Assembly (NCBI GenBank): GCA_017861315.1 | Contig: JAGFXP010000004.1 | Location: forward strand, 10,329 to 74,328 | Length of the DNA stretch: 64,000 bases | DNA from: Bacillota bacterium | GTDB lineage: Bacteria; Bacillota; Clostridia; Clostridiales; Clostridiaceae | Direction: 5' to 3' | Shown: piece by piece, positions 12,697-42,416 of the stretch | Numbering within the stretch: the first letter of the stretch is position 1 | Layout: the number at the start of each line of letters is the position of its first letter | Notes under the pieces: generated by a model | The model's input: the letters and a program-made list of their open reading frames with translations, nothing else | The model's database searches: none | What the model was told of the DNA's origin: nothing | Position numbers and translations under genes: made by a program

Positions 12697-13125
12697 TCAA
12701 TTTTCTTTTTTCTTGCATTTCCCGCACAATCCATAGAAATAAACCTGATTGGCAAGAACCTTGTAATCCGTATACTGCTTGATCTCGTCGTTAAGATTAG
12801 AGAAGCAAACATTGTGGATGTCGTCAACCTTCCCGCAGGACAGGCACTGTATGTGAGGGTGTGCGCAGATATTGCCGTCATACCTGAAATTCCCTTCGCC
12901 CACATTGATTTCCTGTACAAGGCCAACCTCTACAAGGGTTTTAAGTGCCTTGTACACAGTTGCAAGGCTCATTGTAGGGTAAAGATCCTGAAGCGATTTA
13001 TATATGGTCTCCGCAGATGGATGTTCTGTAGTGCATTTCAAGTAATTGTATACCGCTATACGCTGAGGTGTGAGTTTCAATTTTTTTTCTTTGAATATGT
13101 TGGTGAGATTGTCCATAAACACCAT
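12697..13125 (-). CDS. Fur family transcriptional regulator (Fur/PerR/Zur subclass not resolvable by eye)
   Basis: Winged helix TPQRIAV, HPHIQCLSCGKV and C-terminal CGKCKKK CxxC pairs. The in-frame ATG at 13116 has a better AGGA SD and may be the real start. Confidence 0.85.
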   Translation of the reverse strand: MVFMDNLTNIFKEKKLKLTPQRIAVYNYLKCTTEHPSAETIYKSLQDLYPTMSLATVYKALKTLVEVGLVQEINVGEGNFRYDGNICAHPHIQCLSCGKVDDIHNVCFSNLNDEIKQYTDYKVLANQVYFYGLCGKCKKKEN

Positions 13126-13224: not shown

Positions 13225-13242
13225 TTGTTATAATATAAACAA
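13225..13242. promoter_or_regulatory. candidate Rex (redox-sensing repressor) operator overlapping an extended -10 box
   Basis: TTGTTATAATATAAACAA matches the clostridial Rex consensus TTGTTAA-N4-TTAACAA at 12/14 specified positions. It sits inside a 7+7 inverted repeat CTTTGTT...AACAAAG. TGtTATAAT is at 13226-13234. Confidence 0.45.
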
Positions 13243-13298: not shown

Positions 13299-13655
13299 AT
13301 GAAAGTAAGAGAAATTAATGAGCTTCTGAACACGGGACCGGTTATATGTTGTGACGATGACATGGAATTTGACATAAAATTTGGATTTGCGTCTGACCTG
13401 ATGAGCGACGTGCTTGCCCTCGCAAACCATGATGTGGTGCTTATCACGGGACTCACCAACATCCAGACAATCAGGACTGCTGAAATGAAGGACATAAAAT
13501 GGATTATTTTTGTCAGGGGAAAGGTGCCGGATGACATAACTGTGGAACTTGCAAAAGAAAACGGTATCAACATCCTTTGCACAAAGGAAACAATGTTCAG
13601 AACGTGCGGAATACTATTCGATCACGGCCTGCGGGGAGCTGAAATAAACAGATGA
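13299..13655 (+). CDS. DRTGG domain-containing protein
   Basis: 118 aa with a VVLITGLTN..QTIRTA pattern typical of DRTGG domains. It is the first gene of the hydrogenase-associated regulatory operon. Confidence 0.8.
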   Translation: MKVREINELLNTGPVICCDDDMEFDIKFGFASDLMSDVLALANHDVVLITGLTNIQTIRTAEMKDIKWIIFVRGKVPDDITVELAKENGINILCTKETMFRTCGILFDHGLRGAEINR

Positions 13656-14080
13656 GTAACGAAATATTAAAACTTCACTACGATATTGCAACCGGTGATT
13701 ACCTTAAAGCAGGAGAAGCGTCAAGCAACATTAAGAAAGCGCTTATGCAGCTCGGAGTTGACAATAAAATAATAAGAAGAGTTTGCGTTGCCAGTTATGA
13801 GGCGGAAATAAATATCGTCATCCACAGTTTGGGCGGATACATGGATATGAACATTTATGAAGACAGGATAGAAATCGTTGCAGCAGATGTCGGCCCCGGG
13901 ATAAGCGATGTGGCGCTTGCCATGACGGTAGGCTATTCAACAGCTACCCAGGGGGCAAGAGAGATGGGCTTCGGCGCCGGCATGGGGCTCCCTAATATCA
14001 AGAACAACTGCGACGAGCTTACTGTGGATTCATCTGCAGGCGGAAGCACGACAATCACTATGAAAATATATTTTAAATAA
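13652..14080 (+). CDS. anti-sigma-factor-like serine kinase / GHKL ATPase (HATPase_c only, 142 aa)
   Basis: ATGA overlap. G1 DVGPGI and G2 GFGAGMGLPN. Size and architecture resemble RsbW/SpoIIAB. Confidence 0.8.
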   Translation: MSNEILKLHYDIATGDYLKAGEASSNIKKALMQLGVDNKIIRRVCVASYEAEINIVIHSLGGYMDMNIYEDRIEIVAADVGPGISDVALAMTVGYSTATQGAREMGFGAGMGLPNIKNNCDELTVDSSAGGSTTITMKIYFK

Positions 14081-14094
14081 GGTTGTGGTAATAT

Positions 14095-15345
14095 ATGACT
14101 AAGCTATTTCATTCGGTAAAACTTATAGAAGATAAGTGCAAGGGATGTAGCAAATGTATGAACAATTGCCCAATGGAGGCAGTCAGGATAAAAAACTCCA
14201 AGGCATTTGTGATAGAGGATAAATGCATAGACTGCGGAGAATGCATTAAGGTATGCCCGTATAACGCACACGACATAGACAGAGACTACCTGGAGGACAT
14301 CCAGAAATACAAAATCAAGGTGGCTGTGCCATCGACAACGCTTTATGCTCAGTTCGGAGAGTATGTCGATCCCGGCATAATACATGCGGCTCTCCTGAAG
14401 CTTGGCTTCGATGAAGTTTACGAACAGACATATGCCTGCGATATCGTGGCGGAGATAACAAAAAAAGAAATCGAAAATACAAAAAAGCCGGCTATATCCT
14501 TGGTATGCCCAAGCATAGCAAGGCTTATAAGCATCAACTATCCTAGTCTTATAGAGAACACCATTAAGGTGCTGACACCTATAGAGGTTGCGGCGAGCCT
14601 GATACGCGAGAAGTATGAGAAAGCCGGGTACAAATATGAGGATGTAGGAATATTTTTCCTCACCCCGTGCGCTGTCTGGCTCACCTCGCTGAAGCAGTCA
14701 CCCACAAAACAGAACCCTGATATAAACGGCATCATAGCTATAAAGGACATCTATTCGAAACTGCTGAAAGAGATCAAGAGCGGCGAGATCGAGAAGCTCG
14801 ATGTTAGCAGCATGTCCTTTACAGGGCTTTCGGTCGTTGTACCTGGAGGACTCTGCAAGAGCATAAACTCAAGCAACTATATAACCGTTGACGGTGTTAA
14901 AAATGTAATCAAGGTGCTGGATGAGGTTGAAAGCGGAAAGCTCCAGGATGTGGAACTAATAGAGCCCTTCGCCTGCAGCGGAGGATGCCTCGGAGGATCA
15001 TTCCTGGTCGAGAATCCTTATAACGCCAGGAGGCTTCTCGACAAATGCATAAAGGATACAAACTTCACGTACAGCTTTGATGAGCTGAGCGACTACTATA
15101 TGCAGCAGTTTGTGGAGAATGTCAGAAACATAAAGTTCTCAAATCAGAAGCTGGCAGAGGATTTCGTCAGCGCTGTCAAAAAGATGAAATACATGAATGA
15201 ACTTGTAAACACGCTGCCCGGTACTGACTGCGGACAGTGCGGTTCTCCTTCCTGCAAGGCCTTTGCGGAGGATGTGGTTAGGGGACTTGCTCACATAGAA
15301 GATTGCAAATACATTAATTTGGGAGGCGACGTCAATGAAGGTTAA
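14095..15345 (+). CDS. [FeFe]-hydrogenase-like putative sensory protein (divergent H-domain, group D/M2e-like) with 2x[4Fe-4S] ferredoxin N-terminus and C-terminal RnfB-type Fe-S domain
   Basis: CKGCSKCMNNCP and CIDCGECIKVCP. H-domain positions read SLVCPSI / LTPCAVWL / FACSGGCLGGS. C-terminal CGQCGSPSCKAF. Confidence 0.8.
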   Translation: MTKLFHSVKLIEDKCKGCSKCMNNCPMEAVRIKNSKAFVIEDKCIDCGECIKVCPYNAHDIDRDYLEDIQKYKIKVAVPSTTLYAQFGEYVDPGIIHAALLKLGFDEVYEQTYACDIVAEITKKEIENTKKPAISLVCPSIARLISINYPSLIENTIKVLTPIEVAASLIREKYEKAGYKYEDVGIFFLTPCAVWLTSLKQSPTKQNPDINGIIAIKDIYSKLLKEIKSGEIEKLDVSSMSFTGLSVVVPGGLCKSINSSNYITVDGVKNVIKVLDEVESGKLQDVELIEPFACSGGCLGGSFLVENPYNARRLLDKCIKDTNFTYSFDELSDYYMQQFVENVRNIKFSNQKLAEDFVSAVKKMKYMNELVNTLPGTDCGQCGSPSCKAFAEDVVRGLAHIEDCKYINLGGDVNEG

Positions 15346-15664
15346 GGATCTGGCTGATAAACTTGGTATGAAAATTTTGACCGGGGAGGAAGGCCTGGAA
15401 AAAGAAATTGAGGGAGGATATACAGGCGACCTGCTGAGCTGGGTAATGTCCCATGCGTCAAAGGGTGACGTATGGATTACTGTCCAGATACATCCAAACA
15501 TAATAGCTGTTGCCGTACTGCTGGAAATGGCAGCGATTATTGTGCCCGAAGATATTCCTGTGGAAGCTTCCACCTTGGAGAAAGCAAACTCGGAAGGCAT
15601 TGCTGTTCTTCAGTCTCCTGATTCTGCGTTTGAACTGTGTGCCAAAATTAAGGCAGCAATGTAG
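15335..15664 (+). CDS. DRTGG domain-containing protein (second copy)
   Basis: 109 aa, 11-nt overlap with the upstream gene, GGGAGG RBS, same fold-type pattern as 13299-13655. Confidence 0.7.
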   Translation: MKVKDLADKLGMKILTGEEGLEKEIEGGYTGDLLSWVMSHASKGDVWITVQIHPNIIAVAVLLEMAAIIVPEDIPVEASTLEKANSEGIAVLQSPDSAFELCAKIKAAM

Positions 15665-15668
15665 AATT

Positions 15669-16376
15669 ATGAAGATTTATACTGATTTTCATATACACAC
15701 CGCATTATCTCCCTGCGGAGATGCGGATATGACCCCGAATAACATTGTGAATATGGCAATCATAAAAGGGTTGGACGCAATTGCGATAACTGACCATAAC
15801 AGCGTTGAAAACGCGGCGACATGCATGGAGGTCGGGAAAGAGAACGGACTCCTAGTCATTCCCGGCATGGAGCTTCAGACAAGGGAGGAAGTGCATGTTG
15901 TGTGCCTCTTCCCTGATATTGAAGCGGCGCTGGCTTTTCAGGAGTATGTTTACTCCAAACTGCCACCTTTGAAAAACAATGAGAAATTGTTTGGAGAGCA
16001 GCTTGTCTTTGATAAGGATGACGAGATCGTAGGTCATAACGACAGGCTGCTTTTGTCGTCCTCAGATATGACACTTCGTGATGCATTTAACAAAGTAAAT
16101 GAATTAAAAGGTGCATTTATCCCCGCCCATATCGACAGGGAAGCATATGGAATCATCAACGCTCTCGGATTCGTTCCAGACGATCTGCCGATTTCGACTC
16201 TGGAGTATAAAAATGAGGAAGGCCTGAAAAAGCTTGTAAACAGCGGGATTGTACCAAAACGCTACAATTTCATCCGGTCGTCTGATGCCCACTACCTTCA
16301 GGACATCTCGGAGCGCCAAAATGAAATGGAAGTAGATGAATTAAATTCTCTCAATATCATCAATAAATTAAAATAA
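15669..16376 (+). CDS. PHP (polymerase/histidinol phosphatase) domain phosphoesterase
   Basis: MKIYTDFHIHTALSPCGD and AITDHNS metal-binding motifs. The ORF-track start at 15510 overlaps the previous gene, so ATG 15669 was chosen. Confidence 0.85.
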   Translation: MKIYTDFHIHTALSPCGDADMTPNNIVNMAIIKGLDAIAITDHNSVENAATCMEVGKENGLLVIPGMELQTREEVHVVCLFPDIEAALAFQEYVYSKLPPLKNNEKLFGEQLVFDKDDEIVGHNDRLLLSSSDMTLRDAFNKVNELKGAFIPAHIDREAYGIINALGFVPDDLPISTLEYKNEEGLKKLVNSGIVPKRYNFIRSSDAHYLQDISERQNEMEVDELNSLNIINKLK

Positions 16377-16379
16377 ATA

Positions 16380-16408
16380 TAGTCAAATCAGAAGTTATTT
16401 GCTATAAT
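16380..16408 (+). promoter_or_regulatory. possible promoter of the structural hydrogenase operon
   Basis: TAGTCA-17 nt-TATAAT, with TGc immediately upstream of the -10 box at 16403-16408. Confidence 0.35.
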
Positions 16409-16543
16409 GATTTTGGTAATATTTTATGAATTTTAAATTGTGCAAATGTGAGAGTTGTTTTAGAATAGTCCGACTGATGAAGGAAATTCTAAAAAATTTA
16501 AAATTGATAATTTATTAATTAACAATCGAAAGGAAGAGATGGT

Positions 16544-17041
16544 GTGAGTAACGAAAAGAATTGCTGCTGTGGATGCAGTCAGGAAGACCCAAGACTAGCT
16601 GAGCTTATGGAAACAATCGACAAGAACAGAGAAACAAAGGGAGCATTAATCCCGGTTCTGCATAAAGTGCAGACATTGTACGGATACCTGCCAGAGGATG
16701 TTCTTCAGGTAGTATCGGAAGAACTAGACGTTCCAATGACAGAGATATACGGTGTTGCTTCTTTCTATTCAATTTTCTCACTTGAACCAAAGGGAGAGCA
16801 CATAATAAGAGTATGCCTCGGAACAGCTTGCTACGTAAAAGGTGCGCAGCTGCTCATCGACGAAATCAGCAAGGATCTGAAAATCGAAGTTGGCCAGACT
16901 ACACCAGATGGAAAATTCACTTTGGAAGCCTGCAGATGCCTCGGAGCATGCGGATTGGCTCCGGTATTGACAGTAGGTGAAAAGGTTTACGGAAGACTCG
17001 TTCCTGAATCAATCCCAGGAATATTAGCAGAATACAAATAA
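16544..17041 (+). CDS. NuoE-like [2Fe-2S] subunit of NAD(P)H-dependent [FeFe] hydrogenase
   Basis: GTG start after AAGGAAGAG. Thioredoxin-like 2Fe-2S motif CLGTAC...CRCLGACGLAP. Confidence 0.9.
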   Translation: MSNEKNCCCGCSQEDPRLAELMETIDKNRETKGALIPVLHKVQTLYGYLPEDVLQVVSEELDVPMTEIYGVASFYSIFSLEPKGEHIIRVCLGTACYVKGAQLLIDEISKDLKIEVGQTTPDGKFTLEACRCLGACGLAPVLTVGEKVYGRLVPESIPGILAEYK

Positions 17042-17053
17042 GGATGTAAAATT

Positions 17054-17602
17054 ATGAGAGAGCTTTCTCTGCATTTGATAGATATAATACAAAACTCGGT
17101 GGTTGCTGGTGCAACTTTGATAGAAATCGAATTGGATGCAAACACGATTGAAAACTACCTGAAGATCACAATAAAGGATAATGGATGCGGAATGGATGAG
17201 GAGACCTTGAAAAAGGTCAAAGACCCTTTTGTAACATCGCGCAAAACCAGAAAGGTTGGACTCGGGCTTTCGCTGTTTGAAGCTGCATGCCAAAGATGCG
17301 ACGGCTATCTGGAAATCTCTTCGGAGAAAGGGAACGGCACGACTGTCACAGCCTTTATGAAATTCAACCATATTGACAGGAGTCCGGTCGGCAATATTGT
17401 GGATACAATTGTAAGTTCTCTGTTAAATGAAAATACAGACATAGTGTACAGGCATATATTTAACGGGGAGAGTTTTGAATTCGACAGCAGAGAAATCAAG
17501 AAGATAGTAGGCGATGACCTGAGCGATCCGGAGATATTGTGCTGGACCAAAGAGTACATTGCCGAGAACATTGAAAATATAGATGGAGGTGCCATTAAAT
17601 GA
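17054..17602 (+). CDS. GHKL/histidine-kinase-like ATPase (no DHp or sensor domain)
   Basis: N-box HLIDIIQNSVVAG, G1 DNGCGM, G2 GLGLSL. Embedded between hydrogenase subunit genes. Confidence 0.8.
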   Translation: MRELSLHLIDIIQNSVVAGATLIEIELDANTIENYLKITIKDNGCGMDEETLKKVKDPFVTSRKTRKVGLGLSLFEAACQRCDGYLEISSEKGNGTTVTAFMKFNHIDRSPVGNIVDTIVSSLLNENTDIVYRHIFNGESFEFDSREIKKIVGDDLSDPEILCWTKEYIAENIENIDGGAIK

Positions 17603-18000
17603 AATCATTAGCTGAATTAGAAGCAATCAGAAAGAAAACCATAGATAATGTGAACCAGAGAACAGACAGAACAACTACAAGAATAGTTGTCGGTATGGCT
17701 ACTTGCGGAATAGCAGCAGGAGCAAGACCTGTTCTTCTTGCAATACTTGACGAAGTCAAAAAGCTTGGCTTAGGGGATGTATCAGTAGTACAGACCGGAT
17801 GCATAGGCGTTTGCAGGCTTGAGCCGATCGTTGAGGTCATAAGACCAGGCGAAGAAAAAGTAACTTACATCAAGATGGATGCTGAAAAAGCAAAGAAAGT
17901 AGTTGACGAGCATGTTGCCGGCGGAAAAGTGTGCGACGAATACGTTATGCACATAGTAGACGGACACGTTGTAAATGACTACACAGTAAAACATGATTAA
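17599..18000 (+). CDS. thioredoxin-like (2Fe-2S) ferredoxin subunit
   Basis: ATGA overlap. Cysteines at MATCGIAAG and GCIGVCRLEP. Confidence 0.85.
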   Translation: MKSLAELEAIRKKTIDNVNQRTDRTTTRIVVGMATCGIAAGARPVLLAILDEVKKLGLGDVSVVQTGCIGVCRLEPIVEVIRPGEEKVTYIKMDAEKAKKVVDEHVAGGKVCDEYVMHIVDGHVVNDYTVKHD

Positions 18001-18038
18001 TACAAATTCGATAAATGTGATTGATTGGAGGAAGTAAG

Positions 18039-19832
18039 ATGGAATTTTACCGTTCACAAGTGCTGGTATGCGGAGGAACAGGATGTACTTCATCTGGTTC
18101 AAATGATATATGTGCTGCACTGAAAAGCGAGTTGGCAGCAAAAGGCTTAGACAAAGAGGTTGAAGTTGTAAAGACAGGATGTTTCGGTCTTTGCGAATTA
18201 GGTCCGATAGTAATAGTTTACCCGGAAGGAGCGTTCTACAGCCAGGTTAAGGTTGAGGATGTTACTGAACTGGTTGAAGAACACCTGTTAAAGGGAAGAA
18301 TAGTAAAGAGACTGGTTTACCATGATGCGATAGAGGATGACAAGATAAAGTCATTGAACAAGGTTGGCTTCTATGCTAAACAGGAAAGAATAGCCCTCAA
18401 AAACTGCGGAGTTATAGATCCTGAAAACATAGATGAATACCTTGCATTCGACGGATACAAGGCGTTGGAAAAAGCATTGACTCAGATGACACCGCTTGAT
18501 GTTATCAACGAAATGAAGAAGTCAGGCTTAAGAGGCAGAGGCGGCGGCGGCTTCCCTACAGGACTCAAATGGGAATTCGCTTACAAGCAGAACAACCCTC
18601 AGAAGTATATAATCTGCAACGCTGACGAAGGAGACCCGGGTGCATTCATGGACCGTTCGGTTCTTGAGGGAGACCCTCACTCAGTGCTGGAAGCTATGGC
18701 TATAGGCGGATACGCCATAGGCGCAAACATGGGCTTCATCTACGTAAGAGCTGAGTACCCAATAGCTGTTAAGAGGCTTGAAGTAGCAATAGACCAGGCT
18801 AGAGAATACGGACTGCTTGGAAAGAATATATTCGAAACCGGATTCGACTTTGACGTCGAAATCAGACTCGGTGCTGGCGCGTTCGTTTGCGGAGAAGAGA
18901 CTGCACTGATCCACTCAATAGAGGGACACAGAGGTATGCCTACTCCAAAACCGCCGTTCCCTGCTGTAAGCGGATTATGGGGAAAACCAACTGTTATAAA
19001 CAACGTTGAAACTTATGCGAACATCCCTCAGATAATCAACAAAGGTGCTGACTGGTTTGCAAGCATAGGAACCGAGAAGAGCAAGGGAACAAAAGTATTT
19101 GCCCTTGGCGGAAAAATCACTAACACTGGTCTCGTAGAGATCCCTATGGGAACTACTCTTAGAGAAGTTATATACGAAATGGGCGGCGGTATCCCTAACA
19201 ACAAGAAGTTCAAGGCTGTTCAGACAGGCGGACCTTCAGGCGGATGCATAACTGCTGAATCCCTTGATACTCCTATCGAGTACGATACTCTTGTAGCGCT
19301 CGGATCAATGATGGGTTCCGGCGGTATGATCGTCATGGACGAAGACAACTGTATGGTTGACGTTGCAAGGTTCTTCCTTGACTTCACAAGAGAAGAGTCC
19401 TGCGGAAAATGTACTCCTTGCAGAGTCGGCACAAAGAGAATGCTTGAAATGCTTGAAAAAATCACTGAAGGAAAAGCTACGCTTGAAGACCTCGACAAGC
19501 TTGAGAAGCTTGCTCTGTCAATCAAGACTTCAGCTCTCTGCGGACTTGGACAGACAGCTCCAAACCCAGTGCTTTCAACTTTGAAATACTTCAGAGACGA
19601 ATACGAAGCTCACGTTGTTGACAAGAAATGTCCGTCAGGAGTATGTAAGGCATTGCTGCAGTACACAATTGTTGATGATGTATGCAAGAAATGCGGTCTC
19701 TGCGTTAAGGCTTGTCCTGTAGGAGCTATATCAGGAAAAGTTAAGGAGCAGTTCATAATCGACCAGGATAAGTGCGTAAAATGCGGAGCTTGTATGGAAA
19801 AATGCCCATTCAAAGCGATAGTCAAGAAATAA
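18039..19832 (+). CDS. NuoF-like NAD(P)H-binding FMN/Fe-S subunit of [FeFe] hydrogenase
   Basis: ATG 18039 follows GGAGGAAG (the ORF is open from 18021). N-terminal 2Fe-2S domain, GRGGGGFPTG FMN/NADH motifs, ESCGKCTPCR, and two C-terminal 4Fe-4S motifs. Confidence 0.93.
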   Translation: MEFYRSQVLVCGGTGCTSSGSNDICAALKSELAAKGLDKEVEVVKTGCFGLCELGPIVIVYPEGAFYSQVKVEDVTELVEEHLLKGRIVKRLVYHDAIEDDKIKSLNKVGFYAKQERIALKNCGVIDPENIDEYLAFDGYKALEKALTQMTPLDVINEMKKSGLRGRGGGGFPTGLKWEFAYKQNNPQKYIICNADEGDPGAFMDRSVLEGDPHSVLEAMAIGGYAIGANMGFIYVRAEYPIAVKRLEVAIDQAREYGLLGKNIFETGFDFDVEIRLGAGAFVCGEETALIHSIEGHRGMPTPKPPFPAVSGLWGKPTVINNVETYANIPQIINKGADWFASIGTEKSKGTKVFALGGKITNTGLVEIPMGTTLREVIYEMGGGIPNNKKFKAVQTGGPSGGCITAESLDTPIEYDTLVALGSMMGSGGMIVMDEDNCMVDVARFFLDFTREESCGKCTPCRVGTKRMLEMLEKITEGKATLEDLDKLEKLALSIKTSALCGLGQTAPNPVLSTLKYFRDEYEAHVVDKKCPSGVCKALLQYTIVDDVCKKCGLCVKACPVGAISGKVKEQFIIDQDKCVKCGACMEKCPFKAIVKK

Positions 19833-19854
19833 CTTTTGTCAAGGAGTGAATTAA

Positions 19855-21591
19855 ATGGAAATGGTTAAATTAACTATAGATGGCCAGCTGGTTGAAGTTC
19901 CAAAAGGAACCACTGTGCTTGAAGCTGCAAGACTGACAGGAATAGAAATTCCTAGCCTTTGTTATATGAAAGACGTAAACCACCCTGCAAGCTGCAGAGT
20001 ATGCGTAGTGGAAGTTGGACCAAGACTTATTGCTTCCTGCACACTAGTAGCAGAAGAAGGAATGAACGTAAAAACTAATACACCTAAGGTAAGAGAAGCA
20101 AGAAAGATGTCAGTTGAACTTCTTCTCTCAAACCACAAAAGGGAATGTACTTCATGTTTGAGAAGTGAAAACTGCGAGCTCCAGACTGTATCAAAGGACC
20201 TAGGAATAAGGGAACTTAGCTATGAAGGCGACAAGACTGAAGCTGTCTGCGACGATTCTTCATGGTCAATAGTCAGGGATCCTGAAAAATGCATACTCTG
20301 CGGAAGATGCATAAGCACATGCTCAGACATACAGACAGTACACGCTATCGGCTGGGCAGGCAGAGGCTTTGAAACAAGAGTTGCACCTGCTTTCGACAGA
20401 AGTCTCGGAGATTCAGTTTGCATAAACTGCGGTCAGTGTATAATGAACTGCCCAGTTGGAGCACTGCATGAAAGAGAAAACGTTCAGGACGTTTGGGATG
20501 CGCTGAATGACCCGGACAAATTCGTTATAATCCAGACAGCTCCAGCTATCAGAGTTGCAATAGGCGAAGAATTCGGAATGCCTATCGGAACAAGCTCAAC
20601 AGGAAAAATGGTTGCTGCTATGAGAAAATTAGGCTTCTACAAAGTGTTTGATACAGACTTTGCTGCTGACCTGACAATCATGGAAGAAGGAACAGAATTC
20701 CTCGGCAGACTGAAAACTGGCGAAAACCTTCCTATAATGACATCATGCTGCCCAGGCTGGATTAAATTCGTAGAGCAGTTCTACCCTGAAATGATAGACA
20801 ATCTTTCAACATGCAAATCACCTCACGAAATGGAAGGCGCTTTGATAAAAGCGTACTACCGTGACAAGTTCGGCCTCGATCCTGAAAAGATTGTAGTAGT
20901 TTCAGTAATGCCTTGTACTGCAAAGAAATTCTCGGTCAAGAGAGAAATGATGAACGTCAACGGCATCGAAGATGTAGATATAGTTCTCACTACAAGAGAA
21001 TTGGCAAGATTGATCAAAGAAGCTGGAATTGACTACATGAACCTTAAGGATGAGGATTTTGACAATCCATTCGGAGAATCAACAGGTGCTGCTGTAATAT
21101 TCGGAGCTACAGGCGGAGTTGCAGAAGCTGCTGTCAGAACAGTACTCGATATCGTTACAGGAAAAGACCTTCAGGATGTTGATCTGACACAGCTCAGAGG
21201 TACTGAAGGAATAAAAGAAGCATCACTTACTTTGCCTGACGGAACAGTATTGAATGTTGCTATAGCAAACGGATTGGGAAATGCAAGGAAAGTTCTCGAT
21301 GCTCAGAAGAGCGGCGAGAAAAACTACCACTTCATAGAAGTAATGGCATGCCCAGGCGGATGCGTAACTGGAGGCGGACAGCCGATAATCGATGCTAAGC
21401 AGCAGGAGAAGTGCGACGTTAGAGCGATGAGGGCAAAGGCTGCTTACGGCGAAGATGCAGGTAAGGCAATAAGGAAATCACACCAGAACCCGTATATCAC
21501 TAAGATATATGAAGAGTACCTTGGAGAGCCAAACGGACACAAGAGCCACGAGCTTCTCCACACTCACTACGTAAAGAGAAGCAAATTCTAA
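19855..21591 (+). CDS. hydA: catalytic [FeFe] hydrogenase, M3 architecture, group A3 (bifurcating-type) by context
   Basis: All three H-cluster signatures are present: TSCCPGW, MPCTAKK, EVMACPGGCVTGGGQP. N-terminal 2Fe-2S, His-ligated 4Fe-4S and 2x4Fe-4S domains. Confidence 0.95.
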   Translation: MEMVKLTIDGQLVEVPKGTTVLEAARLTGIEIPSLCYMKDVNHPASCRVCVVEVGPRLIASCTLVAEEGMNVKTNTPKVREARKMSVELLLSNHKRECTSCLRSENCELQTVSKDLGIRELSYEGDKTEAVCDDSSWSIVRDPEKCILCGRCISTCSDIQTVHAIGWAGRGFETRVAPAFDRSLGDSVCINCGQCIMNCPVGALHERENVQDVWDALNDPDKFVIIQTAPAIRVAIGEEFGMPIGTSSTGKMVAAMRKLGFYKVFDTDFAADLTIMEEGTEFLGRLKTGENLPIMTSCCPGWIKFVEQFYPEMIDNLSTCKSPHEMEGALIKAYYRDKFGLDPEKIVVVSVMPCTAKKFSVKREMMNVNGIEDVDIVLTTRELARLIKEAGIDYMNLKDEDFDNPFGESTGAAVIFGATGGVAEAAVRTVLDIVTGKDLQDVDLTQLRGTEGIKEASLTLPDGTVLNVAIANGLGNARKVLDAQKSGEKNYHFIEVMACPGGCVTGGGQPIIDAKQQEKCDVRAMRAKAAYGEDAGKAIRKSHQNPYITKIYEEYLGEPNGHKSHELLHTHYVKRSKF

Positions 21592-21603: not shown

Positions 21604-21637
21604 AAGGACTGCAATTCAATTGCAGTCCTTTTTTTAT
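21604..21637 (+). terminator. rho-independent terminator after hydA; the T-run overlaps the stop codon of the convergent PP2C gene
   Basis: AAGGACTGCAA-TTCAA-TTGCAGTCCTT followed by TTTTTTTA. Confidence 0.7.
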
Positions 21638-22806
21638 ACAAAATTCAGATTCACTTTTTTGCCGAGACTCTCAATCAGTTCTTTGAGTTCAAGCAGCTTG
21701 TTCAGTTTGATGCTAAGGTCGAGGGGGAAGTCCGGGTTCTGGTGAGCGGGGTTCACGGCTTTGCCAACCCAGAGGTTGAGATGGCTGCATTCGCATATAA
21801 GCATCTTTGCAAGCAGAGATGCCCCGTCGTGTCCGAAAGCCATCCCGTCGTTAAAGAGGTTTTCTATGGGCTTAGAGTACTCCTTAATCTTCTCCAGAGC
21901 CATGCTGAGGGTCAGCACGCCTTCGGTAATGAGGTCGATTCCCTCCATTGTTGCAGTCGGAGGGACCTTTTTGTCAGCAAAGTCCATGTTGACATTCAGA
22001 GCCCTGTTCAGTTCCCTGGAAGCAATGTTTGCAGCGGTGCCTCCGCAGATTATTTTTTTGCCGTGGCCGCTCATGAATTTCATTACAGCTTCACTGTCGG
22101 CTTCGGGATCCTGAGGAGGACCTGAAAACAGGTCCATGTGCTTCTCTCTTTCGGCTTTAATGATGAGGGCTGTGGTGTCGTCGCCGGGACTGTTGCCGTC
22201 GAAGACCATGCAGACCCCGAGGAGCTCCCGGGCCATTTCCCTTGCCGTCTTGTCAGGGCTAGCCAGCTTCTGGAGATAGTCGTTTACTCCTTCCCATTTC
22301 CAGCCGAGGTTCAGGAAGTCGCCTAGACCCGCATGAGTAACTCCGTCGCTGACAATAGCGAAGACGTCGCCCTCCTCGAGGGTGAAGGAGCATTCGGAAA
22401 CGGTCTTTCCGTGGATGATAACGTCCTTTTTCGGGACTTCGCGGTGATTCCCGTTCCTTATGAGGAAGAAGGGCGGGTTGTCATATTCTGCCATGTACAC
22501 CTTGCCGCAGTCTTCTATTTTTATTATGGTGAAGGTTGAGTATGCCAGATCCCTGACCTTGCACACGGGAAGGGTCTTAACTATGGTGTCCACTGTTTCG
22601 TAGATATCCGAGCCTTCCTTCAGCATGGTTGCTGCAATCTTGGATGTCAGCGTGGCGAGGATGTTGGCCTTTACCCCGCTTCCGAGGCCGTCGGAGAGGA
22701 CGATTATGGTTGAGTCGGGAAGCCTTGACACCTCAACCATATCGCCGCAGAGCTCTTCACCTGATTTTATGAGGCTGTGGTGAAATACGTCGATATAAAC
22801 GCCCAT
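21634..22806 (-). CDS. SpoIIE/PP2C family serine phosphatase with an extra C-terminal domain
   Basis: PP2C motifs CGDMVEV and VLSDGLGSG. ATG 22806 lies 1 nt after the HydS stop (the ORF-track start at 22884 overlaps HydS). Confidence 0.85.
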   Translation of the reverse strand: MGVYIDVFHHSLIKSGEELCGDMVEVSRLPDSTIIVLSDGLGSGVKANILATLTSKIAATMLKEGSDIYETVDTIVKTLPVCKVRDLAYSTFTIIKIEDCGKVYMAEYDNPPFFLIRNGNHREVPKKDVIIHGKTVSECSFTLEEGDVFAIVSDGVTHAGLGDFLNLGWKWEGVNDYLQKLASPDKTAREMARELLGVCMVFDGNSPGDDTTALIIKAEREKHMDLFSGPPQDPEADSEAVMKFMSGHGKKIICGGTAANIASRELNRALNVNMDFADKKVPPTATMEGIDLITEGVLTLSMALEKIKEYSKPIENLFNDGMAFGHDGASLLAKMLICECSHLNLWVGKAVNPAHQNPDFPLDLSIKLNKLLELKELIESLGKKVNLNFV

Positions 22807-22807
22807 A

Positions 22808-24529
22808 TCAGTTGCCTTCTTCCTCTGCCTCGACAAGCCTCTTAAGCTTGGTAAGCAGCGTTTTGGTTTCTGCAGTCGTTTCACCGAGGAGGCTGGCTAT
22901 CTCGTGGGCAACGCGCATCTGCTTGTCAATTACCTCCTGGGTTGAAATAAGGGTTTTTTCCCTGAGTGTGTTATATTTCTTCCTTTCCTCTTCCCTGTCG
23001 GCTATGTTGACCATGGACACCATAAGCATATCCTGCTTTGCAAGATATACTATGCTCTGAATGAATATGAGGTTGTAGCTGGGATAAGCCACACGCCTGC
23101 CGATGATGCTTTCGCCTGTCCTCCTGACCTCCCTGAAGCACTCGTCATCCATTAGGGCCGCCACGGGAAGGCCCTTCATCTTTTCCGAATCAACGAGGAA
23201 GGCGTTCCTGCATGCCGGATTCATCTCGATGATGTTCATATCCCCGTCCAGAAGCAGTGTGCAGTTTGCGGTGTGCTCGAATATTACGTTCGTTATGCTT
23301 TCCGCTTTTGTCCTCATATGGTGAAGGCACATGTTTGGCTCCGCCATGCCCTCAAAGATGGCCTGGGCTTTTTCTCTGCAGGTGTTGTAACCGCAGACGC
23401 CGCAGTTCAGCTCGTCCTCTTCGCCGTGTTTCCCCATGTTGCTTAATATGACCTTTATATCGTGCTCGTAGGCCATGGGATGCCTGAAGCTCTTGTCGCA
23501 GAAGGTTCTTTCAAGATTCAGGCTGCCGGCTGGATTTTCAGATCCTGCAGGGCGTATGGATTTCCTGGATTCCAGGTATTGTTTAACCTTGCCCTGCCTT
23601 TTATAGTAGCTGTGCTCGTTCCTCACCATGTCAGGCCCGCCTGTGCAGCTTCCCTTGCAGGAGCTTGCCTCCACGAAGATGTTTCCTATGTCGCCGTTGC
23701 TTATGCTGGTGAACAGGTCCGTGCATTCGTCTGACCCGCTGACAGTGATGATCCGGAGACCCTGCTTGTGTATGTCCTCGCCCATGCACTCTATAATGCC
23801 TCCGAACTCCGGAAAGCTGCGTCCCCTTCCTGCGGTATTCCTGTCAAAGGCTGAAGCGCCAGTGGACAACGGGTCGAGTCCGCTATCCTGAATCCACTGC
23901 TGGATCTCGTCGAAATTCAAGACCGCATCGATCGCCCCGTCGTTGAAAAAGCTTACGTTTTCGGTTTTCTTGGCCATGCATGGTCCTATGAAGACCGAAT
24001 AGCAGTCCTCGCCGTAGAATTGCTTGATCAATTTCCCGTGCGCTATCATAGGAGAGACTGCCGGTATCAGATATTCTGTCAGGGTCGGGTAGTATTTCTC
24101 AACAAGATAGTTTACTGACGGGCAGGCGGTTGTTATATAGATGCCCTGGGACGTATTCTTCACATAATCCATATAGAAATCCGAGACGACCTCTGCGCCT
24201 ACAGCTGTCTCCTCTACAAAGGAAAAACCAAGATTCTTAAGGACGCCCGGAAATTTCCCAGGTTCGAAGTCGAAATACCCTGCAAAGGAAGGAGCGATGC
24301 TGGCGACAACCTTCCTTCCTGTAATGACGGCATTTTTCACGTCGGGCAGGTAGCTTACAACGTTGCGGGCGTTTTGGGGGCATACGAGCAGGCAGTGGGA
24401 GCATGCTATGCACCTGTCCTCGATTATCTCAGCCTGGTCGTTCTTGAATTTTATAGCCTTAACGGGGCAGGATCTGAGGCATTTGTAGCAGCTCTTGCAG
24501 TTGGCTGCTGAGAAATTCATTATGTTCAT
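22808..24529 (-). CDS. sensory [FeFe]-hydrogenase HydS-like protein (group C): 2x4Fe-4S, modified H-domain, extra 4-Cys cluster, PAS domain
   Basis: CKSCYKCLRSCP and CIACSHCLLVCP. H-domain positions read TTACPSV / GPCMAKKTE / SSCKGSCTGGP. CGVCGYNTC...C is followed by a PAS-like segment. Confidence 0.88.
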   Translation of the reverse strand: MNIMNFSAANCKSCYKCLRSCPVKAIKFKNDQAEIIEDRCIACSHCLLVCPQNARNVVSYLPDVKNAVITGRKVVASIAPSFAGYFDFEPGKFPGVLKNLGFSFVEETAVGAEVVSDFYMDYVKNTSQGIYITTACPSVNYLVEKYYPTLTEYLIPAVSPMIAHGKLIKQFYGEDCYSVFIGPCMAKKTENVSFFNDGAIDAVLNFDEIQQWIQDSGLDPLSTGASAFDRNTAGRGRSFPEFGGIIECMGEDIHKQGLRIITVSGSDECTDLFTSISNGDIGNIFVEASSCKGSCTGGPDMVRNEHSYYKRQGKVKQYLESRKSIRPAGSENPAGSLNLERTFCDKSFRHPMAYEHDIKVILSNMGKHGEEDELNCGVCGYNTCREKAQAIFEGMAEPNMCLHHMRTKAESITNVIFEHTANCTLLLDGDMNIIEMNPACRNAFLVDSEKMKGLPVAALMDDECFREVRRTGESIIGRRVAYPSYNLIFIQSIVYLAKQDMLMVSMVNIADREEERKKYNTLREKTLISTQEVIDKQMRVAHEIASLLGETTAETKTLLTKLKRLVEAEEEGN

Positions 24530-39519: not shown

Positions 39520-39748
39520 CTTTGATAAAGAGGAGTAAGGAATACAACGTATTAAGAGAGGAAGGCCGGTTCGCTGCAAGGCTTTCTATAGGGCGTATCC
39601 TGAAGGTAGCTTTGGAGCTTCTCTGCTGAACCCAAGTAGGCAGGGACGGTTATCTTAACCGATAAAATTTCAAGAGCCTGTATTTTATGCAGGAAAAAAG
39701 GTGGTAACGCGGATCCTCGTCCTTTTATGGGACGGGGATTTTTTTTAT
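39520..39748 (+). promoter_or_regulatory. T-box riboswitch leader (tRNA-Val expected)
   Basis: Stem I elements (GAGGAGTAAGG, AGAGAG). T-box sequence AAAAAAGGTGGTAACGCGG at 39694-39712. Terminator GATCCTCGTCC/GGACGGGGAT plus T8 at 39712-39747. Candidate GUA specifier at 39606-39608. Confidence 0.85.
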
Positions 39749-39767: not shown

Positions 39768-42416
39768 ATGGAAGAAACAAAAAACATCGCAAAAAATTAT
39801 GATCCAAAGGAATTCGAAGACAGGATATACGACATGTGGCAGGGAAGGGGCTATTTTACTCCGGAAGTCGACAAGGACAAAAAGCCTTACACGATTGTGC
39901 TGCCTCCGCCAAACATAACTGGAAAGCTTCACCTGGGACATGCGCTTGACGATACCATCCAGGATATAATAATCAGGACAAAAAGGATGCAGGGATACAG
40001 CACCCTCTGGCTTCCGGGAGAGGACCACGCCAGTATAGCCACTGAAGTAAAGGTGGAAAATGAGCTTCTGAAGCAGGGACTTGTAAAGAGGGAAATGGGC
40101 AGAGAAGCCTTCCTTGAAAAGGTATGGGAGTGGGCTGGAGAATACAGGGAGAGGATTGCCGGTCAGGTAAAGAAGCTTGGCTGCTCCTGCGACTTCACGA
40201 GGGAAGCCTTCACAATGGATGAGAAGCTGAACAAGGCTGTCAGGACAATGTTCGTCAAGCTCTACGATGACGGCCTTATATACCAGGGAAACAGGATTAT
40301 CAACTGGTGCCCAAAATGCAAGACTGCCATCTCGGATGCCGAGATAGAATATACCGAGCAGGAAGGAAGCTTCTGGCACATAAAATATCCATACGCTGAA
40401 GGCGAGGGCTATGTTGTTATAGCTACAACAAGGCCTGAGACTATGCTCGGAGATACTGCCGTTGCAGTAAATCCGAACGATGACAGGTACAAGGACCTGA
40501 TAGGAAAGAATGTCATACTGCCGCTTCTGAACAGGGAGATACCTGTAATCGCAGATGACTATGTTGACATGGAGTTCGGAACAGGCGTTGTTAAGATAAC
40601 ACCTGCCCACGACCCTAATGACTACCAGGTAGGAAAGAGACATAACCTGCCTGAGCCGAACATAATGCACGAGGACGGCAGCATCAACCTCAAGGGCTCA
40701 AAATATGACGGCCTGGACAGATACGAAGCCAGAAAGATGATGGTAGAGGACCTCAAAGCCCAGGGACTGCTTGTAAAGACCGAGGTTCACAACCACAACG
40801 TAGGCTGCCACGACAGATGCGGAATAGTTATAGAGCCTATGACCTCAAAGCAGTGGTTCGTAAGGATGGAGCCTCTTGCAGAGCCTGCCATTGAAGTTGT
40901 TAAGAACAAGACTATAAAATTCGTTCCGGAGAGATTCGACAAGACATACTTCAACTGGATGGAGAACATCCAGGACTGGTGCATATCAAGACAGCTCTGG
41001 TGGGGACACAGAATACCTGTATTCTACTGCAGGGACTGCGGAGAGGTTATAGCTTCCGTTGAACCTGTAGAGAAATGCACTAAATGCGGAAGCGCAAACG
41101 TTGAGCAGGACAACGACGTTCTGGATACATGGTTCAGTTCAGCGTTATGGCCTTTCTCGACACTTGGCTGGCCTGACGAGACCCCTGACCTCAAGTACTT
41201 CTACCCCAACAGCACACTGGTTACGGGCTATGACATAATATTCTTCTGGGTTGCAAGGATGATATTCAGCGGATTATACTGCATGGATGAAATCCCTTTC
41301 GATAACGTGCTGATCCACGGAATAGTAAGGGATTCAGAGGGAAGGAAAATGTCCAAGTCCCTGGGGAACGGAGTCGACCCGATCGAGGTGATAGAGCAGT
41401 ACGGAGCAGACGCTCTCAGGTTCACACTGATAAACGGAAACACACCAGGAAACGACATAAGGTACTATCCTGAAAGGGTAGAGGCGTCAAGGAACTTCGC
41501 AAACAAGATATGGAACGCGTCAAGATTCGTCCTCATGAACCTGGACAAGGATCTCATGGACAAATACAAGGACTGCAAAAACTACTCGGTAGCGGACAAG
41601 TGGATAATGTCGAAGGCAAACACGCTTGTAAAGGAGATAACAGACAACATTGAGAAGTTCGAGCTTGGCCTGGCGTCACAGAAGGTTTACGACTTCATCT
41701 GGGGAGAATTCTGCGACTGGTACATCGAGCTTGTTAAACCTGTAATGTACGGGGACGACGAGGAAGCAAAGGGAGTTGCATACAACGTACTTCACGACAC
41801 GCTGGCTAAGAGCCTTCAGCTCCTGCACCCGTTCATGCCTTTCATAACGGAGGAGATATTCTCACACCTGTACAGCGGATTCGAATCAATAGCTATCTCA
41901 AAATGGCCTGAGTACGATGAGGCAGCATACGACGAAAAGTCTGAGAGAGACATGGAGTACATCATAGAAGCAATAAAATCAGTCAGAAACGTAAGGACCG
42001 AGATGAACGTACCGCCATCAAGGAAGGCTACGGTCAAGGTATTCGTTACCGAAAACGACGCAGCCACTGCATTCGAAGACGGTGAAGCGTACTTCATCAA
42101 ACTTGCATCTGCCAGCGATGTTGAGTATATCGAAAGCAAGGAGGTTCTTCCTGACAAGGTAGTTTCAATAGTTTCAAGGGGAGCCGAGATGTTCATACCT
42201 ATGATGGAGCTCATCGACGCAGAGAAGGAAATCGAAAGGCTCAGCAAGGAAAAGGACAACCTGGAGAAGGAGATCGAAAGGGTTCAAAGCAAGCTTGCCA
42301 ACGAAAGGTTCGTGGCGAAGGCTCCTGCCGATGTCGTAGAAGAGGAAAAAGCCAAGGGCGAGAAGTACCAGGAGATGCTTGCGGCTGTTATAGAGAGACT
42401 GAACGCCTTCAAGTAA
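39768..42416 (+). CDS. valS: valine--tRNA ligase
   Basis: HIGH motif [17 protein letters not shown] present, C-terminal coiled coil, 882 aa. Confidence 0.98.

Follow-up and report, generated by a model that had tools for sequence, protein, structure and literature searches.

The window analysed here is a stretch of 64,000 nucleotides (nt) from a member of the Clostridiaceae (Bacillota; assembly GCA_017861315.1, contig JAGFXP010000004.1, forward-strand positions 10,329 to 74,328), and its own numbering is used throughout. It contains a compact cassette of five genes, which code in order for a stand-alone DRTGG-fold protein (DRTGG1), a single-domain GHKL ATPase resembling RsbW and SpoIIAB, a homologue of the [FeFe] hydrogenases, a degenerate paralogue of the first protein (DRTGG2) and a metal-dependent phosphoesterase of the PHP family (Table 1). 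The coordinates and sizes of these tightly packed genes, as well as their spacing, are exactly as described in the initial annotation of the window. The DRTGG1 and ATPase genes overlap by 4 nt (ATGA) and the hydrogenase and DRTGG2 genes by 11 nt, and gaps of 14 and 4 nt separate the ATPase gene from the hydrogenase gene and the DRTGG2 gene from the PHP gene, respectively. The true start of the PHP gene is the ATG at 15669; the mechanically derived open reading frame (ORF), beginning with the TTG at 15510, overlaps DRTGG2. An AGGAGAG ribosome-binding site lies 10 nt upstream of DRTGG1. At the other end, a promoter-like site with an extended -10 element, TGnTATAAT (16398-16408), is also kept in a relative with about 73%-identical proteins (L082), and no terminator-like site was found in the gap between the PHP and NuoE genes.

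Table 1. Genes and sites of the five-gene cassette and its surroundings (window positions)
Feature	Position	Strand	Basis and remarks
DRTGG1, stand-alone DRTGG-fold protein	13299-13655	+	118 aa (amino acids); fold by model and structure match
GHKL ATPase, RsbW/SpoIIAB-like, single-domain	13652-14080	+	142 aa; Pfam HATPase_c_2, model
Group D (M2e) [FeFe]-hydrogenase homologue, putative sensor	14095-15345	+	416 aa; Pfam, motifs
DRTGG2, degenerate DRTGG1 paralogue	15335-15664	+	109 aa; hhalign
PHP-family metal-dependent phosphoesterase	15669-16376	+	235 aa; Pfam PHP
Promoter-like site TAGTCA-17-TATAAT with TG	16380-16408	+	167-nt gap preceding the hydrogenase operon; 3' boundary of the cassette
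NADH-linked (bifurcating-type) [FeFe] hydrogenase operon	16544-21591	+	Pfam, ORFs; probable object of regulation
NuoE-like protein	16544-17041	+	hydrogenase operon
Orphan histidine-kinase CA-domain protein	17054-17602	+	182 aa; HATPase_c, 64.8 bits
2Fe-2S protein	17599-18000	+	hydrogenase operon
NuoF-like protein	18021-19832	+	hydrogenase operon
HydA	19855-21591	+	hydrogenase operon
Terminator-like site ending the hydrogenase operon	21604-21630		
SpoIIE/PP2C phosphatase	21634-22806	-	Pfam
PAS-containing HydS, group C (M2f)	22808-24529	-	Pfam
PerR-type Fur regulator, divergent from the cassette	12697-13125	-	NF052545, 240 bits

The same gene string is found in many genomes. A scan of one genome per species returned at least 570 stretches coding for relatives of the central hydrogenase homologue, and 80 of these loci were examined together with 10-kb flanks; their neighbouring genes were identified by single-sequence phmmer, and the denominators given below count the loci with room for the gene concerned. 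The 80 loci derive from the Oscillospiraceae, Acutalibacteraceae, Ruminococcaceae, Lachnospiraceae, Christensenella, Thermoanaerobacteraceae, Clostridiaceae and others. Gut and rumen members of the Oscillospiraceae and Lachnospiraceae commonly carry the cassette, which also appears in one WOR-3 and one Armatimonadota metagenome-assembled genome. The hydrogenase gene is directly preceded by the ATPase gene in 74 of 76 loci and has DRTGG1 upstream in 73 of 76; downstream, DRTGG2 is present in 69 of 73 loci and the PHP gene in 67 of 73. The complete string stands in the same order in 62 of 69 species-level loci, far beyond chance. In the exceptional loci, the string is cut short and unrelated genes follow; in Anaerosolibacter (L009), DRTGG1 is followed directly by the hydrogenase gene, with no ATPase gene between them. 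The median distances are -4 nt between DRTGG1 and the ATPase gene (74 genomes), 31 nt from there to the hydrogenase gene, 2 nt from the latter to DRTGG2 and -1 nt between DRTGG2 and the PHP gene. Since these internal gaps are tight compared with the median of 174 nt that precedes NuoE, the five genes form a unit of their own, in which two translationally coupled pairs, DRTGG1-ATPase and DRTGG2-PHP, flank the putative sensor gene.

Gene fusions provide a second line of evidence. A profile search of 1.84 billion representative proteins retrieved 2205 DRTGG1-type proteins (E <= 0.001), and almost all of the best 150 among these stand alone. Two proteins, of 270 amino acids (L070, 9164-9976) and 275 amino acids (P0516), combine DRTGG1 with the ATPase; since they are only 46% identical to each other, the fusion represents a maintained lineage and not an assembly error. 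In a third protein (P0474, 556 amino acids), a complete M2e hydrogenase carries DRTGG1 at its N-terminus. The architecture of these genes indicates a physical partnership of DRTGG1 with the ATPase as well as with the sensor. The reading towards which we lean, with measured confidence, is that the five genes form one transcription unit encoding a cytoplasmic sensor-signalling complex built around the hydrogenase homologue. The cassette is real and widespread, and represents an uncharacterised sensor-signalling system.

The central protein had initially been described as a divergent HydS-like protein; it can in fact be assigned, on the basis of its sequence, to a known class, group D (M2e), of which TamHydS from Thermoanaerobacter mathranii is the only characterised member (PMC8163306). 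It matches the Pfam models Fe_hyd_lg_C (93 bits) and, in its C-terminal part, the FeS domain PF04060 (54.8 bits), carries two Fer4 motifs, and yielded no Pfam match to a PAS domain over its 416 residues. The cysteines of the two N-terminal [4Fe-4S] motifs (C15/18/21/25 and C44/47/50/54) are invariant, as are those of the C-terminal Cx2Cx4Cx16C motif (C379, C382, C387 and C404) within the family, and the H-cluster cysteines C138, C192, C294 and C298 are present in all 203 sequences compared. The positions of C299 and M353 in the CpI enzyme are occupied by V137 and T190, in line with the published criterion for group D (PMC8163306), and the M353 position is T or S in 202 of the 203 sequences.

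TamHydS exhibits the same architecture, with two N-terminal [4Fe-4S] motifs, an H-domain, the C-terminal Cx2Cx4Cx16C motif and no PAS domain. The numbering of the two proteins is nearly collinear (TamHydS/window: A137/V137, S191/T190, L291/F292, E289/E290, C379/C379), and both genes are located upstream of a bifurcating-type HydABC operon, beside a histidine-kinase-like ATPase (PMC8163306, PMC11803613). That such genes precede bifurcating hydrogenase operons and are accompanied by a 'histidine kinase' has been noted previously (PMC3608648). TamHydS is a complete and active hydrogenase of low turnover with sensor-like properties (PMC8163306), its turnover being 1000-fold below that of group A enzymes (PMC11803613). 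The literature leaves its signal transduction unexplained, and a study from 2026 called the finding of interaction partners critical (PMC13104023); the TamHydS publications are silent on DRTGG and PHP neighbours. Land et al. (2020) reported an 'AraC family transcriptional regulator' beside TamHydS (PMC8163306), which cannot be reconciled with a Thermoanaerobacteraceae locus (L074), where the hydrogenase is flanked by the ATPase and a DRTGG protein. Homologues of DRTGG1 are named 'predicted transcriptional regulator' by the Joint Genome Institute (JGI), and because of this naming the 'AraC' label is perhaps an annotation artefact, which may go back to an old annotation of the DRTGG gene.

The active-site pocket sets the window protein apart from its characterised relative. 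In CpI, Lys358 hydrogen-bonds the distal cyanide of the [2Fe] subcluster, and Glu252 of TamHydS is the proposed proton relay of group D (PMC10407848, PMC11803613). The window protein has W195 and L253 in their place, with F292 also in the pocket. The lysine is kept in 129 of the 203 group D sequences, and all but two of these (127) keep the E252-type glutamate as well. The other 74 sequences constitute the subclade of the window protein, where the lysine is replaced by Trp (58 sequences) or Arg (16) and the glutamate mostly by Gln, Leu or Ile; bulky residues occupy the C299 and M497 positions, yet all of the cluster cysteines are still invariant. Its named members include Caloramator, Thermobrachium, Fervidicella and Clostridium tepidiprofundi. 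Identity between the window protein and the Lys-type clade, which includes the Thermoanaerobacteraceae genome (L074), is about 34-44%, TamHydS itself lying outside the compared set. These features suggest that the window protein is part of a divergent subclade within group D. Since both the cyanide-binding lysine and the relay glutamate are missing, H2 sensing by this protein is uncertain, and the Lys-less subclade may perhaps consist of pseudo-hydrogenases that sense a redox state and not H2. The cassette is retained in both subclades (the window, L001, L040, L082 and L083).

The 416-residue protein could alternatively be a plain ferredoxin-linked catalytic hydrogenase, its four small companions being unrelated accessory or housekeeping neighbours. 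In a survey of Thermoanaerobacter, a protein of the group D type was indeed labelled 'Fd-linked' (PMC3608648), and TamHydS does turn over H2, albeit slowly (PMC8163306). However, the group A proton pathway is missing from all group D sequences compared, the relay glutamate of group D is lacking in the window protein too, and the 1000-fold deficit of TamHydS relative to group A (PMC11803613) hardly befits a catalytic enzyme. Unrelated neighbours are ruled out by the strict synteny, the overlaps and the fusions, and the explanation as a whole is the least credible of those considered here.

The ATPase passes the Pfam threshold for HATPase_c_2 (28.7 bits, cut-off 27.4) and scores 46.1 bits with the TIGR01925 spoIIAB model (cut-off 135) and 22-24 bits with the RsbW models (cut-offs 145-155). 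Its AlphaFold2 (AF2) model (pLDDT 91) finds its best Foldseek matches in SpoIIAB (1til, 1th8 and 1l0o; TM 0.72-0.77 over the full length), and further matches include RsbW (6m36), UsfX (8ih8), SiaB (6kko) and the RsbW domain of Rv1364c, all of which are partner-switching serine kinases. E50, N54 (N box), H58, D79-x-G81-x-G83 (G1 box) and, with the exception of A109, G106-N115 (G2 box) are invariant in the family, as is much of the N-terminal helix G21-G35. In SpoIIAB, the N-terminal helix contacts its partners. The structural matches and the preservation of the N, G1 and G2 boxes agree with the earlier view of the 142-residue protein as akin to anti-sigma kinases. Since it falls far below the curated spoIIAB and rsbW thresholds despite the same predicted fold, it is best regarded as a separate family that shares the SpoIIAB/RsbW fold, and as a putative serine kinase or ATP-dependent switch.

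The two small proteins score 20.1 (DRTGG1) and 23.8 bits (DRTGG2) with the Pfam DRTGG model (PF07085), below its cut-off of 25.2, while many of their close homologues carry a precomputed PF07085 match. Their DRTGG identity is upheld despite these sub-threshold scores. For DRTGG1 it follows from the AF2 model (pLDDT 93), which matches the stand-alone DRTGG protein AF1212 (2ioj, TM 0.78) and the DRTGG insert of a CBS-pyrophosphatase (3l2b, TM 0.72), and for DRTGG2 from its hhalign alignment to DRTGG1 (99.5%, E 4e-22), of which it is a collinear paralogue. The structural neighbours of DRTGG1 also comprise the N-terminal domain of HPr kinase and the UDP-binding N-terminal domain of MurE-type ligases; no STAS structure was among the matches of the model. 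AF1212 shares the fold but lacks the SDxMSDVL motif, the hydrogenase-linked DRTGG proteins bearing invariant motifs of their own. In DRTGG1, residues D33, M35, S36, D37, V38, L39, L48, G51, L52, N54, R59, T60, E62, M63, D65, F71, V72, R73, K75 and P77 are invariant and T50 nearly so, and the family motifs SDxMSDVL, TGLxNxQxxRTAEMxD and FVRGKxP are found at the C-terminal ends of strands. Only D32, L33, L34, S35, T49, N55, V59 and A84 are invariant in DRTGG2, which has lost most of the motif residues of DRTGG1 but retains the helix D-[LM]-[LM]-S-x-V-[LM]. The serine common to both paralogues (S36 in DRTGG1, S35 in DRTGG2) is placed by the DRTGG1 model in a helix, within its first turn. STAS proteins have their phospho-serine in a comparable setting, and by analogy S36/S35 would be the best candidate for a phospho-site.

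The parallels with the spoIIAA-spoIIAB-sigF and rsbV-rsbW-sigB systems are real, and extend to gene order, coupling, a duplicated small protein, the ATPase and the phosphoesterase sets. In each case, a single-domain GHKL kinase of about 140 residues, with the same fold and ATP-binding boxes, is preceded directly by the gene for a small alpha/beta protein, with overlapping stop and start codons, and is followed by a third gene. That a DRTGG protein occupies the position of an antagonist, as initially proposed, is borne out by the median of -4 nt to the kinase gene in 74 genomes and by the two fusions to the kinase. The differences are equally clear: the antagonist has a STAS fold in the classical modules and a DRTGG fold here, a sigma-factor gene lies downstream in the former and a hydrogenase gene in the latter, and the cassette has no conserved PP2C. 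The absence of a STAS protein, sigma factor, response regulator or DNA-binding output nearby, also pointed out in the initial annotation, holds beyond the window, since all-against-all clustering of the other ORFs in the 80 loci (10 kb) revealed no further conserved family of these or any other kinds; in the window itself, six-frame ORFs gave no relative of sigma-70, SpoIIAA, RsbV, CheY or Rex, with queries of limited sensitivity. Because neither a STAS protein nor a sigma factor is present, the cassette resembles a partner switch at most in its manner of working and falls outside that family. The SiaA/B/C/D system of Pseudomonas aeruginosa likewise employs an RsbW-like kinase (SiaB, one of the structural matches) and controls an enzyme instead of transcription initiation, but its antagonist fold and phosphatase type are other than those of the cassette.

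A partner-switch reading is plausible but unproven. In its strict classical form, the kinase would alternate between a DRTGG antagonist and a target, and the PHP protein and the nearby PP2C would serve as opposing phosphatases. Such a switch would account for the SpoIIAB/RsbW-like fold and motifs, for the position and coupling of DRTGG1 and for the serine-containing helix that both paralogues conserve, and the structural matches include systems with a non-sigma output (SiaB-SiaC). Yet no target can be identified, DRTGG is not STAS, the fusions of DRTGG1 to kinase and hydrogenase suggest a fixed complex, no PP2C homologue occurs in any of the 80 other loci and the PHP protein is not close to known protein phosphatases. 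In this strict form, the switch is unlikely.

The PHP protein clearly exceeds its Pfam threshold (PF02811, 43.8 bits, cut-off 26.4), and its set of metal ligands is complete, H8, H10, D42, H43, E68, H76, H154, D206 and H208 being invariant; C16 is invariant too. A profile search of the PDB returned EndoQ (5zb8, 6e-9), RNase AM (7ug9), a Bifidobacterium phosphoesterase (3e0f) and pAp phosphatase (2yb1), as well as TM0559 and the PHP domains of PolC, and no entry named as a protein phosphatase was retrieved from all PDB sequences at E<=0.01. A protein phosphatase of the CpsB/YwqE type is unsupported, the nearest solved relatives being different, and the suggestion that the PHP protein opposes the kinase as a protein phosphatase has accordingly lost ground to the likeness with EndoQ, RNase AM and pAp phosphatase.

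These same relatives would suit a ligand-sensing complex that operates without protein phosphorylation. Here a DRTGG1/DRTGG2 heterodimer would bind a nucleotide or redox cofactor (NAD(H), adenine nucleotides or an Ap4A-like compound), the PHP protein would degrade a nucleotide signal, the GHKL protein would act solely as an ATP-dependent clamp, in the manner of anti-sigma factors that bind their target, and the input, H2 or redox, would come from the hydrogenase-like protein. In DRTGG1, the invariant residues fall in loops that follow beta-strands (TGLxN, RTAE, VRGKxP), which are ligand sites in an alpha/beta fold of this kind, and its structural neighbours with UDP-binding and HPr kinase domains, together with the degenerate, seemingly non-binding DRTGG2, point in the same direction. 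DRTGG domains occur elsewhere in nucleotide-regulated enzymes, among them the CBS-pyrophosphatase, but in that enzyme nucleotides bind to the CBS domains, as Tuominen reportedly found in 2010, and we know of no ligand for any DRTGG domain. The ATPase, moreover, keeps all of its catalytic-looking GHKL motifs, and the gene order imitates that of antagonist-kinase pairs. We consider a ligand-sensing complex of this type, although it is the main rival reading, improbable.

The cassette is followed in the window by an NADH-linked [FeFe] hydrogenase operon (Table 1), and HydABC-type genes are found within 10 kb of it in 42 of the 80 loci (30 downstream and co-directional, 10 upstream and divergent). 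In one locus (L073), NuoE is separated by the five genes from the CA-domain gene and the rest of the operon. The initial annotation had placed similar strings next to hydrogenase operons in thermophilic Firmicutes; the association with hydrogenase genes stands for these 42 loci, whereas the cassette is not confined to thermophiles. In another locus (L083, 6290-13794), the cassette has divergent NuoE/NuoF-like genes on one side and a convergent [NiFe] hydrogenase set (large subunit, small subunit and HycI-like protease) on the other, with no [FeFe] HydA within 9 kb. The cassette thus occurs beside two unrelated classes of hydrogenase, which argues for a regulatory role and not for one as a structural component, subunit or maturation factor.

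This distribution also bears on the idea that the cassette assembles, repairs or chaperones the Fe-S or H-clusters of hydrogenases, with the hydrogenase-like protein as a scaffold or carrier and the ATPase driving cofactor transfer. The GHKL ATPases include chaperones, the pocket of the window protein may not hold a normal [2Fe] subcluster, and the cassette is often beside hydrogenase structural genes; in L001, maturase genes of the hydE/hydG/hydF type (two Radical_SAM domains and HydF domains) follow HydA, and the cassette is found about 3 kb downstream of them. Nevertheless, HydE, HydF and HydG are sufficient for hydrogenase maturation, the ATPase is specifically SpoIIAB/RsbW-like and not Hsp90- or MutL-like, and the cassette accompanies a [NiFe] hydrogenase in L083 and has no hydrogenase nearby in half of the loci. 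TamHydS, in addition, is a complete and active enzyme of low turnover (PMC8163306). An assembly set is therefore very improbable.

The orphan CA-domain gene usually comes after NuoE, and in four loci (L040, L042, L052 and L075) it comes directly after the PHP or DRTGG2 gene, without NuoE. In a profile search, its product matched the CA domains of KinB (3d36), ZraS and WalK, and it has no DHp domain. This protein is probably a sixth associate of the cassette. It bears a conserved C-terminal extension of 80 amino acids, and its gene is embedded in hydABC operons.

On the opposite strand, beyond the hydrogenase operon, a second hydrogenase homologue and a phosphatase are encoded. The motifs of the former, a PAS-containing HydS, fit the TmHydS pattern (C299 to A, M353 to G and M497 to S, with the lysine kept), and the pair is maintained in L082. 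The start of the PP2C gene is ambiguous, being either the GTG at 22884, which overlaps HydS, or the ATG at 22806. Elsewhere, the pair is rare: a homologue of the PP2C was found in none of the 80 other loci and the HydS-PAS gene in one. The PP2C, which had been put forward as an opposing phosphatase of the five-gene module, is on this account ruled out as a cassette member; it is the partner of the neighbouring group C HydS, and the pair is separate from the conserved cassette. Group C HydS proteins with their PP2C, as in R. albus HydS and Thermoanaerobacterium HfsB/HfsC, nonetheless provide an instructive parallel, in that a hydrogenase-derived sensor is tied to Ser/Thr phospho-signalling, and there is genetic evidence for a regulatory role of group C HydS (PMC5707799). 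They combine PAS and PP2C, whereas the group D protein is PAS-free and is accompanied by a GHKL ATPase, two DRTGG proteins and a PHP protein. A further parallel is the HoxBC/HoxJ/HoxA system of Cupriavidus necator, where a low-turnover hydrogenase in complex with a kinase-type ATPase reports H2 (PMC5707799); that hydrogenase, however, belongs to the unrelated [NiFe] class, and the cassette has a counterpart neither to HoxJ as a complete, PAS-containing histidine kinase nor to HoxA as its cognate DNA-binding response regulator.

In the sensor-signalling complex that we favour, the Fe-S/H-cluster protein would sense H2 or, in the altered-pocket subclade of the window, maybe the redox state of its own clusters, and would hand a conformational signal to the ATPase encoded just upstream. 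DRTGG1 would be the bound partner of the ATPase, taking the place of the STAS antagonist, and the likeliest phospho-acceptor, the candidate site being the serine of the SD(L/M)MSDV(L) helix common to both paralogues; DRTGG2 and the PHP protein would form an opposing or reset arm. The output would be post-translational, exerted on the NADH-linked hydrogenase or on redox metabolism, possibly by way of the orphan CA-domain protein, and would not involve a sigma factor or a linked DNA-binding protein. That a DRTGG protein is phosphorylated at all is possible but doubtful. A complete STAS-independent partner switch, with DRTGG phospho-acceptors, the PHP protein as a protein phosphatase, a pseudo-hydrogenase as input and direct post-translational control of bifurcating or NADH-linked hydrogenases, is rather unlikely.

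Several observations weigh against the scheme. In about half of the loci, no hydrogenase operon lies within 10 kb, and the DRTGG1-hydrogenase fusion fits a fixed subunit better than a switching partner. The predicted DRTGG fold is unrelated to STAS, and to our knowledge no DRTGG protein is a phospho-acceptor. The nearest solved relatives of the PHP protein, as identified by profile searches, act on nucleic acids or nucleotides. In the literature searched, there was no report of binding, kinase activity or phosphorylation for the cassette proteins, and a phosphoproteome search turned up nothing useful. Finally, the window protein, to judge from its pocket residues, may neither accommodate a normal [2Fe] subcluster nor respond to H2, and the C-terminal cluster of TamHydS keeps its redox state under H2 (PMC13104023).

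The components of the cassette and the adjacency of the hydrogenase and ATPase genes are already known. As far as the searched literature shows, the five- or six-gene unit with its paired DRTGG and PHP proteins, the fusions and the Lys-less subclade have not been described; no paper was found that connects hydrogenases with DRTGG or PHP proteins, or [FeFe] hydrogenases with partner switching, although older surveys may contain an earlier mention. Group D [FeFe] hydrogenases are proposed H2 sensors, and synteny and fusions now name four, possibly five, candidate partners for them, together with a candidate phospho-site. The cassette proteins are the best candidates for the machinery that links a sensor hydrogenase to hydrogen metabolism. 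The proteins under their control are probably the electron-bifurcating hydrogenases, which set the yields of H2, ethanol and acetate in gut, rumen and biofuel Clostridia. If the scheme is true, it would provide a first function for stand-alone DRTGG proteins and would extend signalling of the partner-switch type beyond STAS. The Lys-less subclade of 'sensors', in which residues required for a normal H-cluster are missing, calls for caution in the field, and may be an instance of a hydrogenase that has become a sensor of redox state alone.

The regions on both sides of the cassette contain additional elements. Upstream, the perR gene has a perfect TTGACA-17-TATAAT promoter on the reverse strand (region to 13177), and the block ATTATATAATAGAAATTATTTGTTGTCAAA is conserved in L082, where the arrangement of perR and cassette is the same. 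Control of the cassette by Rex was considered for the palindrome TTGTTATAATATAAACAA (13225-13242), which departs from the clostridial Rex consensus at two positions and overlaps an extended -10 element upstream of DRTGG1; because it is not conserved in L082, it is probably no operator, and Rex control was rejected. Downstream, the intergenic region between the PHP and NuoE genes is 84% identical to that of the relative with about 73%-identical proteins. An AT-rich palindromic element, ATAATTTATTAATTAACAAT (16504-16526), with a Rex-like half-site TTAACAA, is conserved just upstream of the NuoE ribosome-binding site. A role of the cassette in anti-phage defence was likewise set aside, PADLOC yielding merely weak generic matches to PHP and HATPase. 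An Rfam scan of the region for structured RNA detected none but a distant T-box leader (RF00230, 123.9 bits; 39513-39727, forward strand), which lies upstream of an ORF of 882 amino acids (39768-42416).

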